Counted from the stretch's first letter, positions 496-15,119 are shown. The stretch is DNA of 64,000 nt from Candidatus Adlerbacteria bacterium RIFOXYC1_FULL_48_26 (GCA_001773575.1 MEXB01000009.1:7441-71440), one strand, 5' to 3'. Program-made: numbers and translations. Notes: generated from the letters alone by a model not told the origin.

Positions 496-816
496 ATGAA
501 CGGGAACCGAGGAGAAAGAATACAAGAAGCAGTCCGTGCAACAGCGGCAGAATTTCTAGCAAAAGAAGCTGGACCTCAGTCGCTTATTACTGTTACCCAG
601 GTTGCGCTCTCAAACGACGCTCGTAGCGCACGCGTGTTTATCAGCGTACTTCCTGAGAGCGCAGAAGAGGCCGCTCTTGCCTTTGCACAGCGTAACCGTC
701 GAGAACTCGCAGAGTTTTTCCGCACTCGCGTGCGCGGTGCATTTCCTCCCCACTTCGAATTTATGATCGACCGCGGCGAAAAGAACCGCCAGCGTCTCGA
801 CGAACTGTCGAGTTAA
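496..816 (+). CDS. rbfA: Ribosome-binding factor A
   Basis: 106 aa; RIQEAVRATAAEFL...ARSARVFISV RbfA-like; immediately downstream of infB. Confidence 0.85.
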   Translation: MNGNRGERIQEAVRATAAEFLAKEAGPQSLITVTQVALSNDARSARVFISVLPESAEEAALAFAQRNRRELAEFFRTRVRGAFPPHFEFMIDRGEKNRQRLDELSS

Positions 817-866
817 CGTTAAAGTGAAGTACGTCTCGCGTAGGTTTACCCTGAGCGAAGTCGAAG

Positions 867-941
867 GGCCACGTCGCCAAGTAGTAAGGCACGGGACTGC
901 AAATCCTGAATACGCGGGTGCGATTCCCGCCGTGGCCTCCA
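867..941 (+). tRNA. tRNA-Cys (anticodon GCA)
   Basis: Cloverleaf read by eye: acceptor GGCCACG/CGTGGCC, anticodon loop CTGCAAA, T-arm GCGGG-TGCGATT-CCCGC, encoded CCA. Confidence 0.85.
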
Positions 942-959
942 AGGACATGTTCTACATAA

Positions 960-2468
960 CTACGAAAGAGCCTTTTTAAACACGGCTATCAATGCATCAA
1001 GTTCCCCGCGTGTTTCCGTACCAAGCGAGACTCGCACAAATGGCGCGGTAATATTGGTCGCGTAGCGGGCTGTTACATACAACCGCGTCGTATCAAACCC
1101 AAAGCTTGTTCCACCAACAATATCCACGCCCGCTGCCTGTGCAGCCTTTTCCACGCGAGAAACAAATGCGTCATAGTTTGAAACATCTTGTTTTTCCTCT
1201 TTAAAACTCAACGTAACAAATGGTCCTTGGAACGGTAGATCTTTTGCCCATGAGTACGCTCCGTGAGAAGGCAGGCTTGGGTGCACCACACGCGCAAGCA
1301 TTCCCTTTCCATCTCCTACAAACTCATCGAGTTCTTGTGCAAATATTTTTGCGTTTCTACCGATACGAGAAAGACGGGTATCAAACAGTTCTCTGTCGGG
1401 TACGGGCATCGCCAACACAGAAGCATCGGGCATAATAGTTCCCAAATGCATGCGCGCTTCAAACATGCCTTGCTCTGAACCTACGGGTGTCCAGATAATT
1501 CCCCCACCAGCGCGGTCAAACCCAAACTGATGGAACTTGAGGAGACTTTCCACCACCACAAGCTTCATGCCACCAAGTGGTTTAAGTGGTAGGTCGCGCA
1601 GTGGCTGGCAGAACGACGCCAGGCCTGTGTTGTCGAGAACCAAAGTCGATTCTGCTGAAAGCAGGTTTGAAAGTTTTGGAATAAGAACAGAGAGGTTCGG
1701 CATCGCGAGAGACTCAGCGCCGCAGATGGAATCTAAAAATACAATTGAAGGTTGCAGCTTCTCTGCCATAAGGAGCATGTTTTCCGTATCAAACTCATCA
1801 ACATAATGAATCTGCCCCGGGAACAATTTTTCCAACTGCCATTTATTTTGGAAATAACTTGCCTGCCCCACCATCACGACAGAGTCGGGTGCGACACGAG
1901 AATGCAGTGACGTAAGCACCGTTGTTACAGCACTCATGCCGCTGCTGGTTGGAAATGCGAACGGTGCTAAGCGAAGCGGATGGTCAACATATGCTTTTAC
2001 AAACTGCTGGCCATAGCGTTTCTCGTCGATATGCATGTCGCGCTTGTAGTCATTTGCGGAGACAGATATCTTTCCCGTTTCATTTCCTGCCTGGGCTGTA
2101 TGCGTATGCCAAATTGAAGGAGACTGCCAATTACCTGAAGACAGTAAGCCACCGAGCGTCGCATGGAACGTTCTAAGAAGATCGCCGTACTCCTTTTTCT
2201 TTTGTATAAGTTCTTCCTCGTGTCCGACATTCCACAGAGCGTCATTCTTCAACACACGTTCAACTTCTGCAGAAATGCCCTGGAGTATTGCCTGTAGTCC
2301 ATCAGCCTGGCTTTTTACATACACCCTCGTCGGCTTTACATACGAGCCATGTGCTTTGTCTAGATGTATAGAAAACGCTTGGACGCGCTCCTGCGCAGAG
2401 CTGTACAGCGCTCGCAGACGTTCGTAATCTTCTCTCAGATCTGCCAGCGTTTCCTCCATTGGAGCCAT
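960..2468 (-). CDS. PLP-dependent Cys/Met-metabolism family enzyme (cystathionine gamma-synthase/beta-lyase/OAH-sulfhydrylase-like) with ~120-150 aa N-terminal extension
   Basis: 502 aa; fold-type I PLP motifs incl. VVESLLKFHQFGFDRAGG (PLP-Lys region) and GGTSFGFDTTRLY; N-terminal coiled region not typical. Confidence 0.7.
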   Translation of the reverse strand: MAPMEETLADLREDYERLRALYSSAQERVQAFSIHLDKAHGSYVKPTRVYVKSQADGLQAILQGISAEVERVLKNDALWNVGHEEELIQKKKEYGDLLRTFHATLGGLLSSGNWQSPSIWHTHTAQAGNETGKISVSANDYKRDMHIDEKRYGQQFVKAYVDHPLRLAPFAFPTSSGMSAVTTVLTSLHSRVAPDSVVMVGQASYFQNKWQLEKLFPGQIHYVDEFDTENMLLMAEKLQPSIVFLDSICGAESLAMPNLSVLIPKLSNLLSAESTLVLDNTGLASFCQPLRDLPLKPLGGMKLVVVESLLKFHQFGFDRAGGGIIWTPVGSEQGMFEARMHLGTIMPDASVLAMPVPDRELFDTRLSRIGRNAKIFAQELDEFVGDGKGMLARVVHPSLPSHGAYSWAKDLPFQGPFVTLSFKEEKQDVSNYDAFVSRVEKAAQAAGVDIVGGTSFGFDTTRLYVTARYATNITAPFVRVSLGTETRGELDALIAVFKKALS

Positions 2469-2504
2469 TTTAGCACGCGAGCCCTGTGATAAAGTTTCTC
2501 TATA

Positions 2505-3242
2505 ATGCCCATTGCAGACATCCTTGGTTTAAAGCCTGGCCCCACGTTGCTTGTTACCGCAGGGCTTGATGGCGATGAATATCCTTCTATTGAAGCCGCC
2601 TATGCTGCGGCAGAAACATATAACGGTGGGAATTTCAGTGGCAGACTTATTATTCTTCCCATTGTTAATGTGGCGGGGTTTGATGCCGGCACTTCAAAAA
2701 ACCCTATTGATGGAAAATATCCTAAGTACTGCATACCAGGCAGCCTCTTTGGCACCACACCGCGCCTTATGCGACGAATTGTTCAAGACTATGCACGACA
2801 CGCCTCACTATGGCTGGACCTACACAGTGCAGCACAAGGCGAGACAGTTATTCCCTGCCTCTGGAACAACATCAGTGGCGTTGCGGCCATAGATGCTCGT
2901 GGTGAAGCATTTACGCGAGTATCAGGAGTTGTGGCCGCAGTGCGCGAACAAGGCAGTACAGCAACTCGCACACTCGCAAAATATGGATGCACATACGTTC
3001 TTGCAGAATCGGAGGATGAAGAACAGCATGGACACTACATAGACCGTGCAATGCAAACACTTGGAATGATTCCTAGCGTTTCTTCCATACGACCTCCACG
3101 TGTGTTTACAAAAACACGCGACCTAGAAACCCTTGAAGATATCCCGGGCGAAGGTGAGGTACTTTTATGGAAAAAAGTTGCCCAACCTCCCCACCCGGGG
3201 GCTAGATTGGGCGAAATAGCTTACGAAGAGATTACGGAGTAA
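2505..3242 (+). CDS. Succinylglutamate desuccinylase/aspartoacylase (AstE/AspA, M14-like) family protein, possibly with degenerate metal site
   Basis: 245 aa; LVTAGLDGDEY (HxxE-position has DGDE), LWLDLHS (third ligand His region). Confidence 0.5.
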   Translation: MPIADILGLKPGPTLLVTAGLDGDEYPSIEAAYAAAETYNGGNFSGRLIILPIVNVAGFDAGTSKNPIDGKYPKYCIPGSLFGTTPRLMRRIVQDYARHASLWLDLHSAAQGETVIPCLWNNISGVAAIDARGEAFTRVSGVVAAVREQGSTATRTLAKYGCTYVLAESEDEEQHGHYIDRAMQTLGMIPSVSSIRPPRVFTKTRDLETLEDIPGEGEVLLWKKVAQPPHPGARLGEIAYEEITE

Positions 3243-3255
3243 AATAGCCTCATTA

Positions 3256-3341
3256 GCCGGGGTGATGAAATGGTAGACATAGGGGACTTAAAATCCCCGG
3301 ACGTAAAAGTCGTGTGGGTTCGAGTCCCACCCCCGGCACCA
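3256..3341 (+). tRNA. tRNA-Leu (anticodon TAA), long variable arm
   Basis: Acceptor GCCGGGG/CCCCGGC, anticodon loop CTTAAAA, long variable arm, T-arm GTGGG-TTCGAGT-CCCAC, CCA encoded. Confidence 0.85.
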
Positions 3342-3347
3342 GAACAT

Positions 3348-4205
3348 ATGTACGGCGAGATACTAAAAGAGGCACCAGAAGGCTATGTTCCCCACTACCA
3401 ATGGCCTGAGTATGTTCTTGATACTGACGTCCCTCCTCTCTTGGCACCGCGCCTCGTTGGTAAAAACCCAGTCGGCATGTACCGCCGCTTTTGGCCTATT
3501 GTTGTTGAAGAATATATTTCCGATAAAGAACCAGTCCTTGCAGACTCGGACCCAGAAAAGATTTCTCTGAACCGCATCATTATCTGGCAGCGTGTGTTCC
3601 ATAAAGATCAGCCAAAAGGATGGCGCACATTAAGACAAAAGCCTCCACAACTTGAAGGGTTTGCAGAACTCGGGGATGAATATTGGAAACAATGGTCAGA
3701 GTCTGCACGCAGATATCGTCGTAAGTGGCATGATGAATTTTTGGGAAAAGAATATGCGATAGAGAATATTAGTGCCGAAGAATTTTTAAAACATTACGAA
3801 AAGAGCACTATTAAGTCGTATATAAAAAAATTATATGCAGATATAGTTTTGCGAAAACAAAAAGCTTCAGCACATATACGTTTTATTGCCGCCCGCCATC
3901 TACCCACAGGCGACATCGCCGCGGCAATGGCTGTTGTTGATTCTCCGACACACAAAGCCTCGCACTACCTCTGTGGCTTTATAAAACCGGAATATGAAAA
4001 AGCCCCTGCAATGGTGGGAGTGATGGATGAATGGCATGCACGTGGAATAAAACACGGTATGAAGTTCCTCCACTTTGGACGTTTTTGGCAAAAAGGCGAC
4101 CCTGATGACTGGAAAGGATTCTCCCTCTTCAAATCCAAATTTGGATTGCGCTATGTCGCCTATCCACCCGCCCTGTGGAGATTTAAGGGTGGGAGGCTTT
4201 TTTAA
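3348..4205 (+). CDS. FemAB-family (aminoacyl-tRNA-dependent aminoacyltransferase-like, GNAT fold) protein
   Basis: 285 aa from first ATG after tRNA-Leu (ORF-track start 3270 overlaps the tRNA); C-terminal ...DDWKGFSLFKSKFG resembles FemABX F(K/R)KGFG tail. Confidence 0.5.
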   Translation: MYGEILKEAPEGYVPHYQWPEYVLDTDVPPLLAPRLVGKNPVGMYRRFWPIVVEEYISDKEPVLADSDPEKISLNRIIIWQRVFHKDQPKGWRTLRQKPPQLEGFAELGDEYWKQWSESARRYRRKWHDEFLGKEYAIENISAEEFLKHYEKSTIKSYIKKLYADIVLRKQKASAHIRFIAARHLPTGDIAAAMAVVDSPTHKASHYLCGFIKPEYEKAPAMVGVMDEWHARGIKHGMKFLHFGRFWQKGDPDDWKGFSLFKSKFGLRYVAYPPALWRFKGGRLF

Positions 4206-4235
4206 AGATAAAAATGTGCTACTCTTTTGTTGTTC

Positions 4236-4308
4236 GCGCCTATAGCTCAGTTGGTAGAGCAACTCCCTCTTAAGGAGATGGTCCCAGGTTCGAATCCTGG
4301 TGGGCGCA
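4236..4308 (+). tRNA. tRNA-Lys (anticodon CTT)
   Basis: Acceptor GCGCCTA/TGGGCGC, D-arm TAGCTCAGTTGGTAGAGC, anticodon loop CTCTTAA, T-arm CCAGG-TTCGAAT-CCTGG; CCA not encoded. Confidence 0.85.
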
Positions 4309-4313
4309 CAGAT

Positions 4314-4395
4314 GCTGGGATGGCGGAATTGGTATACGCGCCAGTCTTAGGAACTGGTCCCGCAAGGGATGGAGGTTCAAGTCCTCTTCCCAGCA
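4314..4395 (+). tRNA. tRNA-Leu (anticodon TAG), long variable arm
   Basis: Acceptor GCTGGGA/TCCCAGC, anticodon stem CCAGT/ACTGG with loop CTTAGGA, long variable arm, T-arm GGAGG-TTCAAGT-CCTCT. Confidence 0.8.
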
Positions 4396-4439
4396 CACAT
4401 AAACCCTCTTTTAAGCCTTATTTTGCACCCTTTTTTAGC

Positions 4440-4469
4440 TTGACAAGGTGTATTTTATTGTAGTATAAT
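4440..4469 (+). promoter_or_regulatory. Sigma70-like promoter TTGACA-18nt-TATAAT upstream of SPFH cassette
   Basis: Consensus -35 and -10 hexamers at 4440-4445 and 4464-4469; SD-like AAAGGAA ~8 nt before ATG at 4561. Confidence 0.6.
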
Positions 4470-4560
4470 ATTAAAGAATACCAAACCAGGCATATGCCTG
4501 TTAGGGACAGACATTCATCGCGGCATCTCGCCGTAGAACTTTGAAAGAAAGGAACGTGTT

Positions 4561-6156
4561 ATGGAACGCATTCTCAATTTCTTCCGTGCATTGCTCCGCC
4601 AGTCACGCACTCTGTGGCGGTGGAACAGCCGGAGGAGCACTCGTCGACTTCGGTCCACGATGCACTCGATGAACACGCTGGTGCGGTCAATGAGCACCAT
4701 CGCATCTGTGGCAGTCGCCACGGTTGGATGGGCCATCCTCATTTGGATGATCGCTCTTGCCGCACCTCTTGTAGCGGCAATCGTGGGGGCGTTGGTGACT
4801 GGTTTTACCATTCTCTTCTTCTTGCTCCCCTTCGTCCCCACCGCAATCGGGCTTGGGATTCAAAAGCCTGATCGGTATAGGCCGAAGAACGCTCCCGGTA
4901 TCACAACAACACGTGAGTATCCGCCATCAAAGTTCGGTTTCTTCATCTACCCTCATCCGGGCAGAGTGTTTGTAATCGAACGTGGCGGGCGGTTCGTTCG
5001 CGCCATGATGTCGTATCCGCATCGCATGTTCAGAGGCGAAATACGAAACCCGGATAACGATCCAGATGGACAAAGGTTCCTTCCTAACGAGCCTGAGTAC
5101 TGGGAGATCGTAAAAACGCCTGATGGCGAGCATGACACCCATCCACTGCCGTTCCCCTCCCCGGAGAACAGGCCGTGGTTCTGGATCTTCTACTCTCCCT
5201 TAAGCATCCTGTTTTGGATCTGGAAACGCTTCGTGTTCAAGGTTACCGGCGCTGCCTTCACAGGCATACCGCCGTTCCAAGGACCTCGCGTGTATCCAAT
5301 GGAGAGAAACGAAGAAATTACGTTGGAATCCGGCGAAACGGAGCTTGTACGAGTGGAAGACTACAGCAATCACTACCGGGTTGCGCACTTTCAATACCCG
5401 GTGAAGATTGCGAATGTCGACACTTACGACAAGATTCCCGTCAGGGTAATGCTCAACCTCGTCGCACATGTCTACAATCCGTTCATGACGGCCTACGAGA
5501 CTGACGACGACTGGACAACCCGTTTTAGCAACTTGGCAAAAGATGCTACAACCGGGTTCGCTCGGTCCAGGCCTCTAACCGAGGTCTGGACAGCAGCAAA
5601 GGGAAAAACGCGCGAGCTTGCGAAACGAGTGCGCGCGTTTGGACTTCTCGATACGTACAAGGAAGCGTTGCGCCAGGAGGTGCGCAATGGAACTAGTGAG
5701 GCTGAGCCAGGCGAAACGCCTGACACCGACGCAGAAAATCCTACTCGGAGCCAGAGTTTCACATGCGCCTTTGGCATCGTGATCGACAACGTCAACATTC
5801 TCGACATCTCGCCAATGGATCCGAAAGACACGGAAAAATTGGGAGATGTGGCTCGTGCGCAAGTTCGGATGGAAGCAGCACAACTGGACGCAAAAGGTGC
5901 CGTCGCCATCACCGAAGAAACCGCACGAATCATCAAGGAGAATGAGAATATGCTGCGCGACATTCCTCATGCTGCGCAGATCTTGGGGATGGAAACTAGT
6001 GTCCGTATCGCGCAAGCGGCCGGCACGGAAGGAAATCTTGTGTATATCACCGGTGGCACCAGCCAGGCAAGCGACCCAAACCAAGCGCTCGCCTTGCAAG
6101 AACTTCGGCGTCTCCGGCGGCAGAACAAGAGACTGACAAAAGAAAGCGAGGGATAA
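4561..6156 (+). CDS. Membrane-anchored SPFH/band-7 (stomatin/prohibitin/flotillin-like) domain protein
   Basis: 531 aa; Arg-rich N-terminus, two TM helices, then SPFH-like segments (VFVIERGGRFVRAM ... GIVIDNVNILDISPMDPKDTEKLGDVARAQVRMEAAQLDAKG) and C-terminal coiled-coil; GC visibly higher than neighbours. Confidence 0.55.
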   Translation: MERILNFFRALLRQSRTLWRWNSRRSTRRLRSTMHSMNTLVRSMSTIASVAVATVGWAILIWMIALAAPLVAAIVGALVTGFTILFFLLPFVPTAIGLGIQKPDRYRPKNAPGITTTREYPPSKFGFFIYPHPGRVFVIERGGRFVRAMMSYPHRMFRGEIRNPDNDPDGQRFLPNEPEYWEIVKTPDGEHDTHPLPFPSPENRPWFWIFYSPLSILFWIWKRFVFKVTGAAFTGIPPFQGPRVYPMERNEEITLESGETELVRVEDYSNHYRVAHFQYPVKIANVDTYDKIPVRVMLNLVAHVYNPFMTAYETDDDWTTRFSNLAKDATTGFARSRPLTEVWTAAKGKTRELAKRVRAFGLLDTYKEALRQEVRNGTSEAEPGETPDTDAENPTRSQSFTCAFGIVIDNVNILDISPMDPKDTEKLGDVARAQVRMEAAQLDAKGAVAITEETARIIKENENMLRDIPHAAQILGMETSVRIAQAAGTEGNLVYITGGTSQASDPNQALALQELRRLRRQNKRLTKESEG

Positions 6157-6159
6157 ACC

Positions 6160-7128
6160 ATGTACTGGGACATATTCCTCGGACTCGTAGGCCTTATCGT
6201 CGGTGTACCTCTCGCAGGTTTTCTGGCGTGGTGGCTACTGAAGCTTTTGCTTCTGCTACGGACCAAGCTTGGTCATGCAGAAGACCCAACACCTGAAACA
6301 CGGAGGCGGAGACGGCAACTGTTCCGAACAATCGCCATTGCGATTCTAGGGATTGCTGTTGTCATCACTGCCTTCTTGTATATACCGTGGGGCGCGATTC
6401 CCCACGATGAATCCAGAAGCTGGTCATCCTCTGGATGGCAGTGGCTGGAATACGCGTACGTTGCCTATGTACCAGCAGGGGTACGGAGTTTCATCCTTAC
6501 CTACATCTGGACATGGTGGTTTGCTATCGTTGTTGGCATTCTCTTCTTACTGGATCTACTCCGGCGAGGAAAGAAGGCCCAAGTGATAGCGCTTGTGGTT
6601 CTTGTGGCGGTTGGCTCAATAGCCTACTGGTTCGGGCCGGAACTTACGTGTGCCGACGACGACATTGTCTGCAAGGCCCAACATCTGCAACAAAAGCAGA
6701 TAAAGGCCGCCGAAGAGCTCCATAAGGAGCAAGAGCGGCAACGGCAGGCAGCGTTGGCCATCGAGCAAGCGAGAATCGCCACCCAAAAGCAGGTGGCGGA
6801 AGCGGCGGGAGGCGCTCAATGCCTCAACGTCGCTCACAAGGACCACCAGTTCGGGACAGCACCGGACGAATCGTCAATCATCAACCCGGACGGGAAATGT
6901 TTCTTCGCAAACTTTTACCCACCGGAAGATGAGGGTATCTGCTTTTACCAGCAGAGCGCCCATAGCTCGAAACCACACGGACCCTTCGGCAGAGATTGCC
7001 CTGGGGCCATACCGTTCAACCAGAACACAGCACCTCGAGATGTTGAACGCATCTGGGGAAACAAACCTTTCAAAGCGAACTTTGTTCTTCGCCCGCGCAG
7101 TGGCACAAACCACGGCACGAGCAACTAA
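6160..7128 (+). CDS. Hypothetical 4-TM membrane protein with coiled-coil linker and Cys-rich C-terminal domain
   Basis: 322 aa; starts 4 nt after stop of SPFH gene (operon); hydrophobic helices, Q/E/R-rich coiled-coil, C-terminal CxnC pairs. Confidence 0.6.
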   Translation: MYWDIFLGLVGLIVGVPLAGFLAWWLLKLLLLLRTKLGHAEDPTPETRRRRRQLFRTIAIAILGIAVVITAFLYIPWGAIPHDESRSWSSSGWQWLEYAYVAYVPAGVRSFILTYIWTWWFAIVVGILFLLDLLRRGKKAQVIALVVLVAVGSIAYWFGPELTCADDDIVCKAQHLQQKQIKAAEELHKEQERQRQAALAIEQARIATQKQVAEAAGGAQCLNVAHKDHQFGTAPDESSIINPDGKCFFANFYPPEDEGICFYQQSAHSSKPHGPFGRDCPGAIPFNQNTAPRDVERIWGNKPFKANFVLRPRSGTNHGTSN

Positions 7129-7136
7129 CACCAAAC

Positions 7137-7169
7137 GGCAGGACCACAAGTCCTGCCGTTTTTCTTTTT
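7137..7169. terminator. Rho-independent terminator (GGCAGGAC-loop-GTCCTGCC + T-run)
   Basis: 8-bp GC-rich stem 7137-7144/7150-7157 followed by TTTTTCTTTTT; sits between convergent gene sets. Confidence 0.75.
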
Positions 7170-7181
7170 GCATTTCTTAAT

Positions 7182-7430
7182 CTAGAACGAGTTTACTGTA
7201 TTTTGTATTACCGCAATAATGCCGAAGGCTGAGGCCATTACAAACATACCTACAATTCCCCACAGCATGTGATTTTTACCGTCCTCTTTCGCATGCTCAT
7301 CGCCTCGAATATTGAATTTGAAAAAGAATTCAGCGACACCAAATACAAACACCGCCAAACCCGCTGCAAACAAGAGCACAAGCAGCGGGTTGATGATGAC
7401 GGTATTGAGAGCCTGAACTAATTGCCCCAT
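7182..7430 (-). CDS. Small 2-TM membrane protein, signal-peptide-less paralog of the adjacent pilin-like proteins
   Basis: 82 aa; LLFAAGLAVFVFGVAEFFFKF...MLWGIVGMFVMASAFGII aligns with mature parts of neighbours. Confidence 0.5.
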   Translation of the reverse strand: MGQLVQALNTVIINPLLVLLFAAGLAVFVFGVAEFFFKFNIRGDEHAKEDGKNHMLWGIVGMFVMASAFGIIAVIQNTVNSF

Positions 7431-7786
7431 TACTGAGTTACGCGAGGTGCACGGAGAGCATCACCAGTGTTGTTGAAGTACTTGATACCAAGCGCTTCTG
7501 CACCGAACTGAAGAATACCGTAGAGGGTGATCATGACAAACAAAGATACGAGACCTGCGATCATGGTGTTTTTACCTGCAGCAGTGTCCTTTCCCTGACC
7601 CCAGATGTATTTAACCAAGCCCCAGAAGAACGCAATAATAGCGAGGACGATAAGGATAGGGATGATAAGGCGAAGGCCGTACCCTACTGAGCTTATCAAT
7701 TGAACAATGTTATTCAGCTGCTGCGCCGAAGCGATAAACGGTGTTAAAAGCAATAAAGCTGAACTTGCGACGTATATTTTCTTCAT
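7430..7786 (-). CDS. Secreted small membrane protein, TrbC/VirB2 pilin-like (2 hydrophobic helices after Sec signal peptide)
   Basis: 118 aa; signal peptide MKKIYVASSALLLLTPFIASA|QQ; motif AIIAFFWGLVKYI...GLVSLFVMITLYGIL. Confidence 0.6.
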   Translation of the reverse strand: MKKIYVASSALLLLTPFIASAQQLNNIVQLISSVGYGLRLIIPILIVLAIIAFFWGLVKYIWGQGKDTAAGKNTMIAGLVSLFVMITLYGILQFGAEALGIKYFNNTGDALRAPRVTQ

Positions 7787-7868
7787 AAAGTATTAATAGT
7801 ATTACGTTGTTAAGTGTATCAAGCGCCCCCTGCTATACAAGGAAGCTGTGTGGATAGTCCTGGGCAGA

Positions 7869-8231
7869 CTATAGAGGCAAAACCCCCTTAAGGAACTCAA
7901 GTATGCCCGCAAGAGCAACCACTACAAAAAGTCCAATCAAGCCCCACACAATGGTGTCTCTCCCCTTTTTGCGGCCCTTCACATCACCAGCGTAGTAGAT
8001 GTAGCGGACAAGACCCCAAAAAAAGGCAATTATGGCGACGGTAAGAAAAAGACCGGTAAGACTGTTTAAAAGGCCTACAAACATCTTCACCAAGCCATCT
8101 AGCGTAAGACCGCTGCTTGGGTTTGTAAGACGTATCTTTGGCGCAGTACCAGTTTGCGCATACGCAAAGAACGGAGCTAGTACGCCTACCATCAAAGCCA
8201 CACTGCGTATGTAATATTTCTTTAACGGCAT
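7869..8231 (-). CDS. Secreted small membrane protein, TrbC/VirB2 pilin-like paralog
   Basis: Start moved to MPLKKYYIRSVALMVG (signal peptide) by analogy with paralogs; motif AIIAFFWGLVRYI...GLIGLFVVVALAGIL. Confidence 0.55.
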   Translation of the reverse strand: MPLKKYYIRSVALMVGVLAPFFAYAQTGTAPKIRLTNPSSGLTLDGLVKMFVGLLNSLTGLFLTVAIIAFFWGLVRYIYYAGDVKGRKKGRDTIVWGLIGLFVVVALAGILEFLKGVLPL

Positions 8232-8644
8232 TGTCCGATAGTTGGGTTTGAACTTCCTGCCCCTGCACCAAGTGCACCGAGCGTGTTGGCAATAATTTGT
8301 CCGAGCACCCATGCGCCTATAAAAATACCGATACCTATAATGGTGTACCAGAGGTTTCTTTTTGCATCCTCCAGCGCCTTGGTGTTACCGCGTGCCCAGA
8401 CCATTTTGAAACCCGCGTACACCAAGAACAATACTGCAACAGGTCCGCCTATTGCAGAGATCGCGTCTAGGAAGAGAGTCAGTGCTTTGCAGATTGAGTC
8501 TGCTTTAAGCGGATTGGTGAAACCTACATAGTTCCCATTGTTATAACCTGAAGAATTACCATTGTTATAACCACCTTGCGCGCTCGCAACCATTGGGAGC
8601 GCGAACAAAAACGCCGCAACGTATATTTTCTTTAGATACTTCAT
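8222..8644 (-). CDS. Secreted small membrane protein, TrbC/VirB2 pilin-like paralog with Gly/Asn-rich insert
   Basis: 140 aa; signal peptide MKYLKKIYVAAFLFALPMVASA|QGG; two hydrophobic helices; tandem with three paralogs. Confidence 0.6.
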   Translation of the reverse strand: MKYLKKIYVAAFLFALPMVASAQGGYNNGNSSGYNNGNYVGFTNPLKADSICKALTLFLDAISAIGGPVAVLFLVYAGFKMVWARGNTKALEDAKRNLWYTIIGIGIFIGAWVLGQIIANTLGALGAGAGSSNPTIGQCR

Positions 8645-9948
8645 TGTAGGATACCGGGCGCAAGCGTTTGCAGTTCATGTGCCGCATCCTGAACAGCAGG
8701 GCCAGCTTGTGACTTGTTGCTTATGACATCGTTGACCATCGTACTAAATATATCATCGGTTTCTGTTGGATTTGGGTCCAACCAACCTCGTGCGATAAGA
8801 GCCGACTGGTAGAAAGTTGCGTACGCTGCGTTACCTGTCGTATCCACAGAAAGATCTAGTCGTACTGGTGCACCGCCGAATATTGGGAAGGCAAGACCGA
8901 TTCCTGTTTGGTTTGTCATCTTCTGTGCGATAGCAAGCGCGCCTTGCTGGTTTTGTGATGTACGAGGGATGGCAAGGCCTGTGAGGGCTCCGTATGTTAC
9001 ATACGTGGTGTTGCTCTGGATTTGTGGAACCGTTGCCACACCAAAACGGAGGTTTGGATTCCTTGTACTGATATCTGCATATTCACTCGCGAAGCCAAGA
9101 TACATTGCCAGCGTTCCTCCAGTAAACGCTTCCTGTGAACGAGGGAGGGCGCGGTTCCATGAATAGTCCGTTTTAGATGGATTGCCGAATTCTGTATAGA
9201 ACTGCAGCGCTGATGATGCAGGATTTTCCGTTGCTCCTGGGCTATTTGCACCAAATACGCTGCGCAAAAGGTCAGTACTGTTGTCACGCACCACAAGCAA
9301 ATCCCCCGCTTGGATAAATAGCATTGAGAGAATTTCTTTCGCGTGGTCAACATTGTTCCAACCACCAAGCGCTATAGCACTTCGTTTAAGGTTCTTAGCG
9401 GGGTCTAATAGGCTAAGTTTTTGTGCCTGTGTAACAACGTCGTTCCAATACTGTGGAGGCTGTGCAATGCCGGCTGTTTGGAATATATCTCTATTCCAGT
9501 ACATCACGAGTGGGTCAATAAGGAACGGGAAGGCCAACGTGCCTTGTGATGTAAGGAAAAGCCGCGCTTCGTCCACATAGGAAGATACAAAAGAAGATTG
9601 GGGCACTATGTTGTATGGAATAGTGTTGATTTTGTCAGCAAAGATTCCTATCTGATCTTGAGAGATAAGAATGATGTCGGGGCCGATGCCGCTGGCCATT
9701 GCGTTAATAACTTCGTTTGTATAGGTGCTTTCACTTTTTTGTACATATGACACAGCCTGGAACGAACGGTCTTGTTGGTTCAAGGCATTAAGAAAATTGA
9801 CCATCTTACCCTGGTCGGCCGTGCCCCACACCACAACGCTTCCTATATTGTTGTTGTTTGCAGTATATAGAGAAAAACTAAGAACACCGAGACCAATAAA
9901 AATGACGAACATCGCCGTAAACACAATTTGAAAGGTTGTCATTTTCAT
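8641..9948 (-). CDS. ABC transporter substrate-binding protein (family 1, sugar-type), membrane anchored
   Basis: 435 aa; N-terminal TM anchor, extracellular solute-binding fold features; start overlaps upstream stop by 4 nt. Confidence 0.7.
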   Translation of the reverse strand: MKMTTFQIVFTAMFVIFIGLGVLSFSLYTANNNNIGSVVVWGTADQGKMVNFLNALNQQDRSFQAVSYVQKSESTYTNEVINAMASGIGPDIILISQDQIGIFADKINTIPYNIVPQSSFVSSYVDEARLFLTSQGTLAFPFLIDPLVMYWNRDIFQTAGIAQPPQYWNDVVTQAQKLSLLDPAKNLKRSAIALGGWNNVDHAKEILSMLFIQAGDLLVVRDNSTDLLRSVFGANSPGATENPASSALQFYTEFGNPSKTDYSWNRALPRSQEAFTGGTLAMYLGFASEYADISTRNPNLRFGVATVPQIQSNTTYVTYGALTGLAIPRTSQNQQGALAIAQKMTNQTGIGLAFPIFGGAPVRLDLSVDTTGNAAYATFYQSALIARGWLDPNPTETDDIFSTMVNDVISNKSQAGPAVQDAAHELQTLAPGILQ

Positions 9949-9954
9949 ATAAAT

Positions 9955-10509
9955 CTATTCTGCAGTCTGAGCCGCCTTTTTGCGAACGATAAATCCCCAG
10001 TGGTATGCGCCTGCGTTTATATCATCTACCCACGCAAGACCTCCCTCTTCAAACATCTGTCGTGCAGCGCGTGCGGTTATGACATGGTCTTTGTGTGGAC
10101 CCATCCCACCAAATGACGCCGACCAGTCTATGATAAGTGCTCGACCACCATTTTTAAGTAATCGTTTTACTTCAGCCACCGCGGCCTGTCTGTTGTGTGA
10201 TGCAAATAGAACATTAGCGAGAATGCAGAGGTCGAATTGTTCAGCGGGTAGATGGCTGCCGCCTGTGTGTTCTATATCGCCGTGAATTACCTCAACATTA
10301 TTGAGGCCTTCTGCGTGCGCTAAATTTTTAAGACGAGGAAGAAGGTCGCGGTGCACATCAACGGCCCACACGACACCGGTCTCGCCCACTATGCGTGCCG
10401 CGGCACGGGTAAAAAATCCTGAACCGCACCCCAGGTCTGCAACTTTCATTCCTTCGTGCAGATGAGTAGCTCCGAGAGCTTCAGTTGGATTCAAAAAACT
10501 AGTTTCCAC
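9955..10509 (-). CDS. Class I SAM-dependent methyltransferase
   Basis: 184 aa; motif I VADLGCGSGFFT, motif II-like DVHRDL... Confidence 0.8.
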   Translation of the reverse strand: METSFLNPTEALGATHLHEGMKVADLGCGSGFFTRAAARIVGETGVVWAVDVHRDLLPRLKNLAHAEGLNNVEVIHGDIEHTGGSHLPAEQFDLCILANVLFASHNRQAAVAEVKRLLKNGGRALIIDWSASFGGMGPHKDHVITARAARQMFEEGGLAWVDDINAGAYHWGFIVRKKAAQTAE

Positions 10510-11861: not shown

Positions 11862-12638
11862 CTAAACCTCCAGATCTTTATCAATCAGTAATAAAAATGA
11901 CAAAGACAATATTGTCTTTGCAAGTTGGCCGGAAACTTCTTCTTCTTTTGGGTGGGCGGAGAATATTCTATAAATATTTAACATCTCCATTAATGGCTTG
12001 TGTTTATCTGGGAGAATTTCTTTAATTTTTTTATATTTTTTATCTTTGTATTCCTCAGGTCTAAAAATCTTGATGATACCGCCCAGCGTTGCCTCCTTAA
12101 AACTTGCTCTGTAAAGCTTTTTATTTGTTCTTTCTAACAATTTATGCAATCTATATTCAACTGCAGAAACAGACATAACAACTGAACTAAGGTAACAGTG
12201 TGCGTTTAGGGCTCGCATTGACTCTTCAAGCCGTACTGCTTCGGTTAGCGCAATAGGTTTTATTCTCTCCAATACTTCTTTATCTAAACGCTTAAGGTGC
12301 GGAAGGAGATAACCGAGATGTTTCTGAAACTGTTTTTTAACCCGATTTGCTTCTGGGTTAACAATACCCCAAAATTGTTGTTCCAATCGATGAATCTGAT
12401 TAGTCGGTACATCTAAATACGAAAGGAGCTCTACATAAAATTTTAAATGACCTCCCAGATGAGAAATCTTTGTCGAATAAGTATGTTGAAAAAAATGTTC
12501 GTCGACTTCTTTCGGATATCTTTTCAAAAAGCTCTCTGCAATTTTTGCAACATGCGGTTCTAAACCTTTTTGTTGTTTTATGAAGTAAATCATCACCTCA
12601 TGTGAGGATGAGATTTTCTTTGAATTACTCTTTTCCAT
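11862..12638 (-). CDS. AT-rich hypothetical alpha-helical protein with C-terminal HEPN-like Rx4H motif (possible Abi-like)
   Basis: 258 aa; very Lys-rich, visibly lower GC than flanks; motif YRIFSAHPKEE (R-x4-H). Confidence 0.5.
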   Translation of the reverse strand: MEKSNSKKISSSHEVMIYFIKQQKGLEPHVAKIAESFLKRYPKEVDEHFFQHTYSTKISHLGGHLKFYVELLSYLDVPTNQIHRLEQQFWGIVNPEANRVKKQFQKHLGYLLPHLKRLDKEVLERIKPIALTEAVRLEESMRALNAHCYLSSVVMSVSAVEYRLHKLLERTNKKLYRASFKEATLGGIIKIFRPEEYKDKKYKKIKEILPDKHKPLMEMLNIYRIFSAHPKEEEVSGQLAKTILSLSFLLLIDKDLEV

Positions 12639-12644
12639 AAAATT

Positions 12645-15119
12645 TTACAGACAAACGAAGCTCGCAATTGCGTCGCCGTCGCGGAGTTTCATGATGCGGA
12701 CGCCTTGAGTACCACGAGAGAGTGATGGAATTTCATTTACACCAGTGCGGATAACTTGGCCTTTCTGTGAGATGACAACCATTTCAGCATCAGAGTCGTC
12801 TGTCTTGCTGATGACACGTGCCGCGATCAATGGGCCGGTCTTTGGAGTTACTTTAACTGTCTTGATACCTGAGCCGCCACGGTTTTGGACTTTATATTCA
12901 TCGGCTGGAGTTGTCTTGCCGTACCCGTTCTTTGAAACTACGAGCACTTCAACATTCTTTGCACCCTTCTGGACAACATCGGCACCGACGATAAAGTCGC
13001 CTGAGCCAAGTTTCATTCCGCGAACGCCACCGGCTGAGCGGCCCATTGGGCGGATGTCACTTTCTTTAAATCGGATTGATTGGCCTTTTGCAGATGAAAG
13101 GAAGATTTCATCGCCCTTCTCTACAAGGAGCGCTGCGATAAGTTCATCACCCTTCTGGAGTTTGATTGCAATAAGGCCACTGCGGCGAACGTCGTGGAAG
13201 GAAGCCGCATCAACTTTCTTAGCAACACCCTGCTTGGTGATCATATAGAGGAATTTCTCTCCCTCTTTTTCTATCTTGCGCATCGGAAGCACTGACGAGA
13301 TTTTTTCTGCATCAGTAATAGAGAGGAAGTTCACAACAGCCTTACCCTTTGTAGAGCGTTTACCTTCTGGGACATCGTACATCTTTATCTGGTACGCCTT
13401 ACCAAGGTCGCTAAAGAAGAGGAGGTCGCTGTGTGTAGATGTTGTAAGGAAGGTCGTTACAAAGTCTTCTTCTTTGGTGTTCAAGTCTATAACTCCAACT
13501 CCCCCACGCTTCTGGCGGCGGAATTCTTCTGGGTTGGTGCGCTTTACATAGCCACCCGCAGTGAGTACAAGCACCTGCTCTTCATCGGTGACCAAGTCTT
13601 CAACATTGATGACACCCGCCGAGCCTTTCATAACTTTAGTTTTGCGGTCATCAGCAAAACGCTTTGCAGCAACAACAATTTCTTCTTTGACGACACCGAG
13701 CATCTTCTTGTCGCTTGCGAGCAAGATGGTCCACTCTTTGATACGTGCCTGCACTTCATCGAGTTCGTTTTCAACTTTCTTGCGTTCCAAGTTCGCCAAA
13801 CGTGAAAGGCGCATTTCCAAAATTGCCTGTGCTTGGATAGATGTGAATTTAAATTTCTTGATGAGGTTTACTTCTGCCTCTCCAACATCCTTCGATGCGC
13901 GGATGATTTTAATAACCTCATCGATATGGTCAAGAGCTTTGGTGAGACCGAGCAAGATGTGCTCGCGTTCCTGCGCCTTCTTAAGATCAAATTCTGTGCG
14001 GCGTTTTACAACTTCGCGGCGGTGTTTAATGAATTCCTGCAAAATGCCTTTGAGAGACATTGTCTGTGGAATACCATCAGCCAAAACCACCATGTTGAAG
14101 TGGAAGGTATCTTCAATGGCCGTGTGCTTGTAGAGGAAGTTCAAAACTTTCTGTGGGTGCGCACCGCCCTTCAAATCAATAACGACACGAATGTCTTTGG
14201 TTGATTCATCGCGAAGACCACGCACTCCTTCAAGTTTTTTATCACGCACCAAGTCTGCAATGCGCATAATAAGGTCAGCCTTGTTTACGCGATATGGAAT
14301 CGACGTGATAACGATTTGGAAATCGCCTTTCTTGTTTTCAACAATTTCTGCATTGCCGCGAACGACAACACCACCCTTACCTGTTGAATATGCGTGCAAC
14401 AAATCTTTCTTGTTGTATGCAACAGCACCCGTTGGAAAGTCTGGGCCTGAAACAAACTCCATCAAATCTTCTGTTGTGGCATCTGGGTTTTCTATCAAAT
14501 GCGTAAGCGCATTCGTTACCTCTGTAAGGTTGTGTGGAGGAATGGACGTTGCCATACCAACGGCAATACCGAGGGTTCCGTTAAGCAAAATGTTTGGAAC
14601 TGTTGCAGGAAGCACTTCTGGTTCCTGTTGAGTTGCGTCGTAGTTGGGGCGCCAATTAACAGTGTCCTTCTCAAGGTCGTTAAGCAAAAGCTCCGACATG
14701 CGCGACATCTTTGCTTCGGTGTAACGCATAGCAGCGGCCGAGTCGCCGTCGATAGAACCGAAGTTTCCTTGGCCAAGGATAAGTGGGTAACGCATTGAGA
14801 AATCCTGCGCCATCTTTACCATCGCGTCATACACAGACGCATCGCCGTGCGGATGGTACTTTCCGAGCACATCTCCAACTACTGCTGCTGATTTGCGGAA
14901 ACGGGCACCAGGAGTAAGACCCATGCGGTGCATGGCATACAAAATGCGGCGGTGTACGGGCTTCAAGCCATCACGAACGTCAGGCAATGCGCGCGACGTG
15001 ATAACGCTCATCGCGTAGTCCAAATACGACTCGCGCATTTCTGTTGAAATATTGCGCGCTACGATGCCTTGTGGATTCTGTTCTGCGCCAGCTGGCGGAT
15101 TTGTTTCTTGTTTTGCCAT
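12645..15119 (-). CDS. gyrA: DNA gyrase subunit A
   Basis: 824 aa; [10 protein letters not shown] active-site Tyr region, [15 protein letters not shown]-terminal beta-pinwheel repeats. Confidence 0.95.

Follow-up and report, generated by a model that had tools for sequence, protein, structure and literature searches.

A tRNA cluster of Candidatus Adlerbacteria bacterium RIFOXYC1_FULL_48_26 (GCA_001773575.1, MEXB01000009.1:7441-71440; this whole 64,000-nucleotide stretch is hereafter the window) is followed by two open reading frames, here called A and B. The questions raised by this locus are what the two genes encode and how they came to lie there. The initial annotation had read them as a self-contained SPFH/band-7 and membrane-protein cassette, acquired as an island beside the tRNA genes. 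The analysis below upholds the cassette-like organization and the SPFH assignment, and leads to a different view of the origin of the locus.

A two-gene operon headed by an SPFH gene

The two ORFs, bounded by a promoter and a terminator (Table 1), form a two-gene operon that is indeed a self-contained unit with a dedicated downstream membrane partner, and this organization recurs in relatives. The promoter, originally called near-consensus, matches all 12 consensus positions and is the sole full match within 5.6 kb; every one of the 18 loci inspected, drawn from 17 relatives and the window, has a 10-12/12 match 16-125 nt 5' of A. Both ORFs are of the lengths first described, although the gap between them is 3 nt rather than 4, the TAA of A occupying 6154-6156 and the ATG of B starting at 6160; a candidate ribosome-binding site, AGGGA, lies 7-10 nt before this ATG. 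Across loci, the spacing from A stop to B start ranges from -4 to +5 nt, with the exception of L026, in which the called starts overlap by 17 nt. The terminator had been considered strong and bidirectional; the hairpin is real, but its T-run is good on the plus strand and poor on the minus strand, making it only partly bidirectional. A GC-rich hairpin with a T-run occupies this position in all 15 loci that were folded (the window and 14 relatives), and the stem sequence of the window is also present in L033.

Table 1 Features of the A-B locus, in window coordinates
Feature	Position	Strand	Description
tRNA-Leu(taa)	3256-3341		ARAGORN
tRNA-Lys(ctt) and tRNA-Leu(tag)	4236-4309 and 4314-4396	+	ARAGORN; upstream neighbours of the operon
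Promoter of the A-B operon	4440-4469	+	Sigma-70-type, TTGACA-18-TATAAT, 12/12
Gene A	4561-6156	+	531-aa ORF, divergent stomatin-like SPFH protein
A, N-terminal membrane anchor	4699-4857	+	Residues ~47-99, about two TM helices, after Arg-rich residues 1-46
A, Trp/Phe-rich helix	5179-5247	+	Residues 207-229, WFWIFYSPLSILFWIWKRFVFKV; AF2 helix; family-specific
A, C-terminal long helices	5821-6027	+	Residues 421-460 and 471-489; AF2 secondary structure
Gene B	6160-7128	+	322-aa ORF
B, membrane module	6160-6633	+	TM1, Arg-rich loop (RRRRR), TM2-TM4; hydropathy and AF2
B, CxxxxxxC motif and stalk	6646-6804	+	C163, C170; Gln/Glu/Ala-rich helix, residues ~169-215
B, globular Cys-containing C-terminal domain	6805-7128	+	Residues 216-322, 4 Cys; exchangeable module
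Intrinsic terminator hairpin	7133-7161		Between convergent B and pilin genes; stem 12-13 bp, 7 GC pairs
Four VirB2-like pilin genes (PF18895)	7182-8644	-	Convergent with A-B; neighbour, membership in the system not implied

The NCBI annotation of A starts at M44 (position 4690) and gives 488 aa; the longer start adopted here has the better ribosome-binding site and adds an N-terminal motif, RT.W.W..R.TRR, that is common to P0002. When A and B were searched singly against Pfam, NCBIfam, PADLOC and PHROGs, B returned only noise due to its TM composition, and A returned a Band_7 match (PF01145; E=0.007, 16.9 bits) under the 23.6 cut-off. Word-indexed homology searches recovered only 8 relatives for A and 1-3 for B; by exhaustive profile search, the A family comprises at least 99 representative clusters at E<=1e-30. 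Band_7 was matched by 40 of 64 full-length family members (best 1.4e-11), and a profile of these 64, compared with the PDB, retrieved Pyrococcus (PH) stomatin at 8.1e-12, human stomatin at 4e-9, prohibitin at 5e-7, QmcA at 3e-6 and HflC/K at ~5e-3. A larger alignment of 130 sequences matched stomatin at 5e-20, a value that may reflect profile drift, as it includes partial-match sequences that are maybe canonical SPFH proteins; the stomatin link was nonetheless kept (8e-12) when the search was repeated with full-length members only. The AF2 model of A, of modest confidence overall (pLDDT 57.5; 70-83 in the core), consists of an SPFH α/β fold followed by long C-terminal helices. The top 50 Foldseek matches of this model in the PDB were all of SPFH fold (stomatin, HflK/C, prohibitin, flotillin, erlin, vault MVP), with a TM-score of 0.68-0.73 to the SPFH domain of mouse stomatin. 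Family profile and fold thus agree in making A a divergent SPFH protein of stomatin type. The locus has no other SPFH gene, and tblastn found no paralogue of A in the window.

The N-terminal anchor of A is seen as a region of hydropathy >=1.6 over residues 43-102, and the members of the family have 1-4 TM segments at this end. In 44 members, the K+R value was 1.32 after the last TM segment versus 0.30 before it, a flank charge that suggests a cytoplasmic SPFH domain. The Trp/Phe-rich helix, with the conserved consensus WLLYSPLSILWWxWKRWVY, sits within an insertion of ~70 aa in the first part of the SPFH domain; its hydropathy of ~1.1 is under the TM threshold, and we propose that it acts as an interfacial membrane anchor. 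The C-terminal helices align with the helical region of stomatin and HflC, and are followed by a conserved tail, IVILGG...DP.QAA.LKELR.

The membrane partner and its exchangeable domain

The first description of B as a 4-TM protein with a coiled-coil and a Cys-rich end holds well. Its hydropathy has four peaks (residues 5-23, 57-75, 116-134 and 140-158), AF2 places helices at 2-37, 45-78, 106-135 and 139-158 and a further one at 169-215 (pLDDT 70-78), and all 6 cysteines lie beyond residue 162. The AF2 model was built from a 4-sequence alignment and has a pLDDT of 54.7, falling below 50 in the ectodomain. The CxxxxxxC motif and stalk also occur in P0010, L001 and L025, and the C..NPxGxC..C..C motif of the B end is common to L001, L002, L007, L025 and P0160. 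In general, B proteins are 258-404 aa long and consist of TM1, a Pro- or charge-rich loop, 3-5 further TM helices (4-6 in total across loci, counted as hydropathy peaks) and a tail of 95-195 aa. The tails of 20 of the 21 proteins hold an even number of cysteines (2, 4 or 6), which are nearly absent elsewhere in B. By the positive-inside rule, B would have both termini outside, and its tail is probably extracellular and disulfide-bonded, a topology that is based on hydropathy, charge and cysteine parity only.

An NfeD/YqiJ-like partner had been suggested for B. With its multi-TM N-terminal region and its operon with an SPFH gene, B does have traits of NfeD; however, PF01957 was matched neither by the window B at E<=1 nor by any of 20 positional B proteins at E<=0.1, and B also had no sequence match in the PDB. 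By sequence, B is thus not recognisable as an NfeD. It also differs in size, the NfeD short form being ~140-150 aa with its soluble domain on the SPFH side (PMC2636767), and in the predicted placement of the B tail opposite the predicted cytoplasmic SPFH domain.

Comparison of related loci revealed that the C-terminal domain of B is mosaic. In L028, L029 and L030, the A proteins are 98.7-99.8% identical and the first 540 nt of B 98-100%, whereas the last 300 nt are only 42-48% identical and represent three ectodomain types that cannot be aligned. The same break in identity occurs between L005 and L012 and between L008 and L009, and in L017, two B genes lie in tandem and differ in ectodomain type. 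Individual types recur in diverged lineages (L027/L030 and L009/L017b). B-type genes were also found behind two other Band_7 subfamilies (L033 and L034), which the A-family HMM does not detect. Between the window and L033, DNA identity is 68-90% from ~6780 through the terminator and random upstream, with 66% aa identity over 161 aa; the ectodomain and terminator of L033 are therefore like those of the window, yet stand behind a different SPFH subfamily. Identity between L002 and L034 is likewise module-wise. In L034, the same kind of B TM core (65-68% aa identity) goes with a quite different SPFH protein, which argues against tight co-evolution of A and B. This variability was documented in relatives; all assemblies found of the window organism carry a single B allele, on contigs 99.9-100% identical to the window, and tblastn with B and its ectodomain found no B paralogues or silent ectodomain cassettes in the window.

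The higher GC first noticed in A and B is real within the window: both have a GC of 0.544, and their GC3 (0.615 for A, 0.591 for B) exceeds the mean of the 66 window ORFs (0.47, sd 0.06) by 2.0 to 2.4 sd, ranking highest of all save ORF 610-948. (The latter overlaps rbfA and tRNA-Cys and is probably no gene.) In most relatives, however, the GC3 of A-B likewise departs from that of the flanks, lying above it in GC-poor genomes and below it in GC-rich ones; the raised GC is therefore not evidence of recent insertion here. It could alternatively be that the locus is ancestral and that the A-B allele of the window was imported from a higher-GC relative by homologous (allelic) replacement, which would account for the anomaly. 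Module-wise replacement is on record here for the SPFH gene, the B TM core, the ectodomain and a pilin tail; the high-GC segment coincides with the extent of A-B; most other named Adlerbacteria MAGs bear 50-54 (% GC) in their names versus 48 here, A-B being at 54.4%; and the GC3 of A-B varies less across lineages than that of the flanks. This narrow range, however, could equally stem from constraint on A and B, no sequence resembling a donor turned up (the nearest A is 49% identical), and the identity of A to its relatives is no higher than that of the neighbouring SBP or methyltransferase (MT) genes. We therefore consider such an import possible, although on balance doubtful.

Known SPFH systems and the proposed role

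The nearest known systems are those of stomatin-type SPFH1 proteins with NfeD partners, namely P. horikoshii PH1511 with PH1510, and E. coli QmcA (YbbK) with YbbJ. PH stomatin, human stomatin and QmcA are the best sequence and fold matches of A, with which they share the N-terminal anchor, the long C-terminal helices and an SPFH domain on the cytoplasmic side (predicted for A, reported for QmcA). Stomatin/NfeD operons also have two genes, with a multi-TM partner that bears a small non-helical end domain, and SPFH genes are commonly found in operons with such multi-TM and all-β partners (PMC2636767). A differs in scoring below the Band_7 cut-off singly, in the insertion with the aromatic helix, in a further insertion within the domain's first half, and in its distinct tail. 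B differs from NfeD in being encoded downstream, in its larger size, in the lack of a Pfam match (20 proteins) and in its paired-Cys, strain-exchanged and probably extracellular C-terminal domain. The proposed working model for A-B is found in the YdjG/YdjH-YdjI (SamGHI) system of B. subtilis, in which a dedicated membrane protein is reported to go with an SPFH scaffold (bioRxiv 10.64898/2026.02.06.704340), and in stomatin, which is reported to encapsulate membrane clients, AQP1 and UT-B being enclosed by the scaffold (PMC12407830). Strain-variable ectodomains are not reported for those clients.

SPFH cages are known to confine a patch of membrane (PMC12478178, PMC12624060). By analogy, A would most likely oligomerise into a cage on the cytoplasmic face and fence off such a patch, and the TM bundle of B would sit in the SPFH-delimited patch with its paired-Cys C-terminal domain outward, filling the operon-partner role of NfeD without being a recognisable NfeD. 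The B ectodomain and, in one population, also the C-terminal tail of the adjacent pilin are replaced through recombination among strains, such that the A-B pair looks like a scaffolded, diversifying surface determinant, of which host-cell recognition or phage evasion would be the likeliest selective driver. We have moderate confidence in this overall reading, in which an SPFH cage holds a dedicated client whose surface domain recombines. SPFH proteins are ubiquitous, yet few of their bacterial clients are known, and a lineage-specific SPFH subfamily with an obligate, co-translated partner not recognisable as NfeD offers a defined scaffold-client pair.

The neighbouring pilin genes invite a broader view. 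All four matched T4SS_pilin of Pfam (E values of 1.7e-7, 1.7e-3, 6.9e-8 and 9.4e-11), and the array adjoins A-B in all loci, L026 having A-B within it; in one population, the tail of the pilin pil1 varies along with the B ectodomain. Arrays of this kind (PF18895/PF04956) in Patescibacteria hold 2-11 highly variable pilins, proposed to aid in adapting to host strains (PMC12102498), and the locus is thus placed beside genes already suspected of host adaptation. A and B themselves are no pilins, and that paper does not mention SPFH proteins; nothing in the literature searched linked SPFH proteins to Patescibacteria or to pilin arrays. The larger ORFs scanned across the window included no VirB4 or other T4SS ATPase, and were housekeeping genes (gyrA, S1, signal peptidase, class I tRNA synthetase, LepA, MurJ, GroEL, RNase J). 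The adjacency of A-B and the pilins may reflect general synteny of the infB-to-gyrA region and not function. As a speculative extension, to which we give low credence, A-B and the pilin array would jointly serve strain-specific recognition at the cell surface, either to attach to hosts or to avoid phages, with an SPFH cage dedicated to a polytopic surface protein whose disulfide-bonded ectodomain recombines as a cassette-like polymorphism. If true, this would be the first case of an SPFH scaffold serving a surface determinant that diversifies, and would open a way to host specificity in the uncultured, ultrasmall and presumably episymbiotic CPR bacteria.

Two other roles were weighed against the cage-and-client reading. 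In one, A is an HflK/C-like regulator of FtsH and B is incidental. HflK/C indeed share the SPFH fold and belong to a cage-forming family, the profile search also retrieves both from the PDB, P0017 carries the JGI name 'regulator of protease activity HflC', and the stomatin-type QmcA has been reported to interact with FtsH (PMC2636767). Nevertheless, this role appears improbable, considering that the locus has just one SPFH gene and not a K/C pair, that the HflK/C match is weak and far below that of stomatin (~5e-3 versus 8e-12), that no ftsH is adjacent, and that B is invariably coupled to A. Furthermore, the SPFH domain of HflK/C is extracytoplasmic, the opposite of the orientation predicted for A. 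In the other, the locus is an anti-phage or conflict system built around the SPFH protein, with B as its surface sensor. SPFH domains reportedly appear in some conflict systems, and the diversification of the B ectodomain is arms-race-like. This we judge very unlikely, since none of the PADLOC-DB 2.0 models matched A, B or orf311 (a 311-aa ORF between tRNA-Leu(taa) and tRNA-Lys(ctt)) at E<=1, A and B contain no nuclease, protease or NTPase effector domain, and the locus lies among housekeeping genes and is present throughout the clade rather than patchily.

Conservation of the locus and the island question

The gene order infB-rbfA-[four tRNAs]-A-B-<four VirB2-like pilins-<SBP-<methyltransferase was found to be shared by ~20 relatives, a count that covers every related locus with enough sequence. 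A identity in these relatives is 27-49%, and those that are named belong to Adlerbacteria, Kaiserbacteria, Nomurabacteria or Paceibacterota. Where rbfA is retained (7 relatives), the tRNAs Cys-gca, Leu-taa, Lys-ctt and Leu-tag separate it from A (L001 having three only), and the same four are found 5' of A in L011; the genes between the tRNAs differ among relatives. The pairwise identities of A parallel those of SBP, MT and rbfA.

Acquisition of A-B as an island or cassette inserted beside tRNA-Leu(tag), as originally proposed, would fit the tRNA-adjacent position, the variable inter-tRNA genes and the raised GC and GC3. This reading fails, and is highly improbable, because A-B is syntenic in the related loci: instead of the variable presence expected at the tRNA-Leu(tag) 3' flank, the pair occupies one constant site in relatives whose A identity goes as low as 27%, flanked throughout by this tRNA set and by the pilin/SBP/methyltransferase block, and A has diverged as its neighbours have. 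In addition, there was no integrase-like Pfam match among the neighbouring ORFs scanned, no direct repeat of >=14 nt within 3200-7500, and no second copy of the tRNA-Leu 3' end in the window with up to 3 mismatches, and the GC3 offset changes sign in high-GC relatives. The tRNA-Lys/Leu pair is thus an ancestral neighbour of A-B and no integration site. As part of the cage-and-client explanation, and held with the same moderate confidence, A-B is regarded as a vertically inherited operon of Paceibacteria-type CPR bacteria. A general lesson is that tRNA adjacency and atypical GC are insufficient to call an island.

Exchange at A-B is allelic replacement inside a fixed locus, not island insertion, and the locus is a recombination hot spot within otherwise reduced, syntenic genomes. 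That the ectodomain swaps are artefacts of metagenome assembly, arising from chimeric contigs, is given almost no credence. In favour of this view, all the relatives come from metagenome assembly, the contigs of the window organism are often broken within A, and L011 has an N-run in B. Against it, each variant retains an intact ORF with paired cysteines and is followed by a terminator of its own, and three unrelated pairs, originating in different projects, share one structural position of the break; in addition, the types are recurrent in diverged lineages, and the independent assemblies L030 and L031 carry the same allele at 99.7-100% identity.

A divergent SPFH protein and its membrane partner

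Proteins A and B, the 531-aa SPFH candidate and the membrane protein encoded downstream of it, are 100% identical to the hypothetical proteins A2419_00370 and A2419_00375 of Candidatus Adlerbacteria bacterium RIFOXYC1_FULL_48_26, which is placed in the Parcubacteria group of the Patescibacteria. When A alone was compared with Pfam, Band_7 was matched at E=0.007 and 16.9 bits, under the cut-off of 23.6, and a word-indexed search retrieved 8 relatives. When 1.84 billion cluster representatives were searched exhaustively with a profile, 480 sequences were retrieved at E<=1e-3, of which 99 were at E<=1e-30. A profile of 64 full-length members, 40 of which also matched Band_7 individually, found only SPFH proteins among solved proteins, including the stomatins of P. 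horikoshii (E=8.1e-12) and human (4e-9) and prohibitin (5e-7), and more weakly QmcA (3e-6) and HflC/HflK (~5e-3). The AF2 model of A was of modest confidence (pLDDT 57.5, with 70-83 in the core); its best 50 Foldseek matches in the PDB were all SPFH-fold complexes, and it superimposed on the mouse stomatin SPFH domain with a TM-score of 0.68-0.73. By these results, A has the SPFH fold and belongs to a divergent subfamily specific to its lineage. Features particular to this family are one to four N-terminal TM segments, two insertions, the first of which (~70 aa) follows the first beta-hairpin, and a conserved tail at the C-terminus. A Trp/Phe-rich helix (residues 207-229) is conserved within the first insertion; at ~1.1, its hydropathy is below that of a TM helix. 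In 44 members, K+R was 1.32 after the last N-terminal TM segment and 0.30 before it, a charge bias suggestive of a cytoplasmic SPFH domain, the location also reported for QmcA.

Homologues of B were almost undetectable by sequence, and a gene of B-type architecture, encoding 258-404 aa, directly follows A in every locus. In the window, 3 nt separate the A stop codon from the start of B, the Shine-Dalgarno sequence of which (AGGGA) lies within the 3' end of A; across the loci, the start lies within -4 to +5 nt of the A stop in all but L026, where the genes overlap by 17 nt. A promoter matching 10-12 of the 12 consensus positions is found 16-125 nt 5' of A in 18/18 loci examined, and a hairpin with T-run 3' of B in 15/15 loci folded, the window being included in both sets. 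The A-B operon is conserved and tightly coupled. In B, a short N-terminal segment leads into TM1, which is followed by a loop rich in Pro, Ala or charged residues (RRRRR in the window), another 3-5 TM helices and a C-terminal tail of 95-195 aa. Cys is almost absent outside this tail, in which it numbers 2, 4 or 6 in 20 of 21 proteins, the lone odd count being a boundary artefact; B is a polytopic partner with a Cys-paired tail. This parity, together with the positive-inside rule, indicates that B is probably N-out/C-out, the tail forming a disulfide-bonded ectodomain outside the cell. The SPFH-plus-partner reading of the initial annotation was supported by the profile and fold matches of A and by the membrane partner encoded directly behind it. 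A partner of NfeD type, which had been considered, was not supported, as the NfeD model had no match in 20 B proteins; nor was there any PDB sequence match for B, and its AF2 model was of poor quality and unfit for fold search. B-type genes also occur behind two further Band_7 proteins (in loci L033 and L034) to which the A-family HMM is blind, and the SPFH-B pairing is therefore broader than the A family. In L011 (2824-4391), B is broken by an N-run at about the TM/ectodomain junction, and an extra secreted protein of SGY(S/A) repeats lies at 3735-4391, between B and the pilin array.

A syntenic locus beside tRNA genes

The promoter, the two genes, the terminator and the raised GC were all confirmed (see table). 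Their reading as an acquired island beside the tRNA cluster was not supported, on several grounds. The relatives included MAGs and metagenome contigs under the labels Paceibacterota, Kaiserbacteria, Nomurabacteria and, in one case, "Saccharibacteria"; their A proteins are 27-49% identical to that of the window. Wherever the flanking sequence sufficed, the related loci had the common order infB-rbfA-[tRNA-Cys, Leu(taa), Lys, Leu(tag)]-A-B, followed on the minus strand by four PF18895 pilins, SBP_bac_1 and the methyltransferase; this last block is kept in all relatives, and in L026 A-B is located within the pilin array. Pairwise identities of A parallel those of the SBP_bac_1 protein, the methyltransferase and rbfA. 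No integrase was found by Pfam in the neighbouring ORFs, nor was a direct repeat or a second copy of the tRNA 3' end.

Features of the A-B operon and its surroundings in the window
Feature	Position	Description
PLP-dependent enzyme	960-2468 (-)	among the tRNAs
AstE/AspA-like protein	2505-3242	among the tRNAs
ORF without family	3270-4205	311 aa; among the tRNAs
tRNA-Leu(taa), tRNA-Lys(ctt), tRNA-Leu(tag)	last one ends at 4396	upstream of A
Promoter of A-B	4440-4469	TTGACA-18-TATAAT, perfect match
Gene A	4561-6156	531 aa
Gene B	6160-7128	322 aa
Terminator	7133-7161	GC-rich hairpin of 12-13 bp with T-run; immediately ahead of the convergent pilin gene
Four VirB2-like pilin genes (PF18895; fourth also matches TrbC), then membrane-anchored SBP_bac_1 protein and small SAM methyltransferase	7182-10509	

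The compositional claim itself is real, since GC is 54.4% in both genes and GC3 is 0.61 in A and 0.59 in B, against a mean of 0.47 (sd 0.06) over 66 window ORFs. Nonetheless, the GC3 offset recurs in the relatives, being positive in low-GC and negative in high-GC genomes, and is therefore not evidence of a recent insertion in the window genome. The variable part of the region is the tRNA patch at 867-4396, not A-B; relatives differ in how the tRNAs are ordered and oriented and in which genes lie between them. Four tRNAs (Cys-gca, Leu-taa, Lys-ctt, Leu-tag) lie in this patch between rbfA and A and recur in 8 of 10 relatives scanned, while L001 keeps three of them; a homologue of the 311-aa ORF occupies the same slot in L011.

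By composition, the most foreign-looking gene near A-B is a 258-aa ORF at 11862-12638 (-), with GC of 35%, GC3 of 0.31 and no Pfam match, which adjoins gyrA (12645-15119). The top GC3 of the window belongs to a 112-aa ORF at 610-948 (-), which overlaps rbfA and tRNA-Cys on the opposite strand and is almost certainly not a gene. The NCBI start of A is M44; we favoured the longer ORF for its RBS and for an Arg-rich N-terminal motif shared with the A-family protein P0002, a choice without effect on the other results. A perfect 14-nt palindrome (CAGGCATATGCCTG) at 4487-4500, downstream of the promoter and within the untranslated leader that precedes the A start codon, could serve as an operator or form a hairpin in the RNA.

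Exchange of modules within the locus

Exchange was seen among the near-identical loci L028, L029 and L030/L031, which share 98.7-99.8% identity in A, 97-99.5% upstream and 98-100% in the first 540 nt of B, while the last 300 nt of B fall to 42-48%, i.e., random level, and encode three unrelated ectodomains with two Cys each. The ectodomain is recombining. The same identity break, right after the last TM helix of B, recurs between L005 and L012 (a fall from ~90% to 40%) and between L008 and L009 (from ~85% to 35%). The convergent pilin likewise has a conserved core and a differing C-terminal tail among L028, L029 and L030, and the variable zone therefore covers the 3' ends of both convergent genes. 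This pilin lies at 5071-5394, ~7031-7373 and 7094-7522, respectively; the three tails are one short, one GGQT-repeat and one GSSG-rich.

The window ectodomain and terminator recur in L033 (68-90% DNA identity; 66% aa identity over 161 residues), where both the TM module and the SPFH gene ahead of them are of another kind. Between L002 and L034, DNA identity is 71-88% in the TM core of B and 78-85% in the pilin, and these two loci have neither the SPFH gene nor the ectodomain in common. In L017 (1352-3576), two tandem B-type genes have unlike TM modules and unlike ectodomain types, the second ectodomain being of the L009 type (67% identity) and the first only 38-46% identical to those of L008 and L009; this tandem represents either a duplication or an allele captured at this locus. 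Exchange therefore proceeds by replacement of alleles, module by module, while the locus itself stays fixed. Such replacement could also explain why A-B of the window is GC-richer than its surroundings; no donor for the window allele was found.

Proposed working and the neighbouring pilins

SPFH proteins form cages confining a membrane patch (PMC12478178, PMC12624060), stomatin encloses membrane clients (PMC12407830), and operons pairing SPFH and partner genes have been described (PMC2636767). By analogy, A would form a cage on the cytoplasmic face, the TM bundle and basic loop of B would be seated within it, and the variable domain of B would be exposed on the cell surface. A-B is an SPFH/partner operon in which a non-NfeD partner bears a cassette-like ectodomain. 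The suggestion of a defence system was not supported. The convergent neighbours of A-B are a VirB2-like pilin array of a type that has been described as highly variable and possibly host-adaptive in Patescibacteria (PMC12102498). A role common to A-B and the pilin array is possible; since the whole infB to gyrA region is syntenic, their adjacency alone is weak evidence for it. Among the larger ORFs scanned across the 64 kb of the window, neither VirB4 nor any other T4SS ATPase was found.

Assemblies made independently from the window organism, 99.9-100% identical, break off inside gene A, at ~5013-5050, 5555, 5861 and 5935. Three of these ends fall in a span of less than 40 nt (L014 at 5013, L037 at 5027 and L038 at 5050). 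The ends may reflect strain variants, either of A or of the region upstream of it, that co-exist in the samples concerned.
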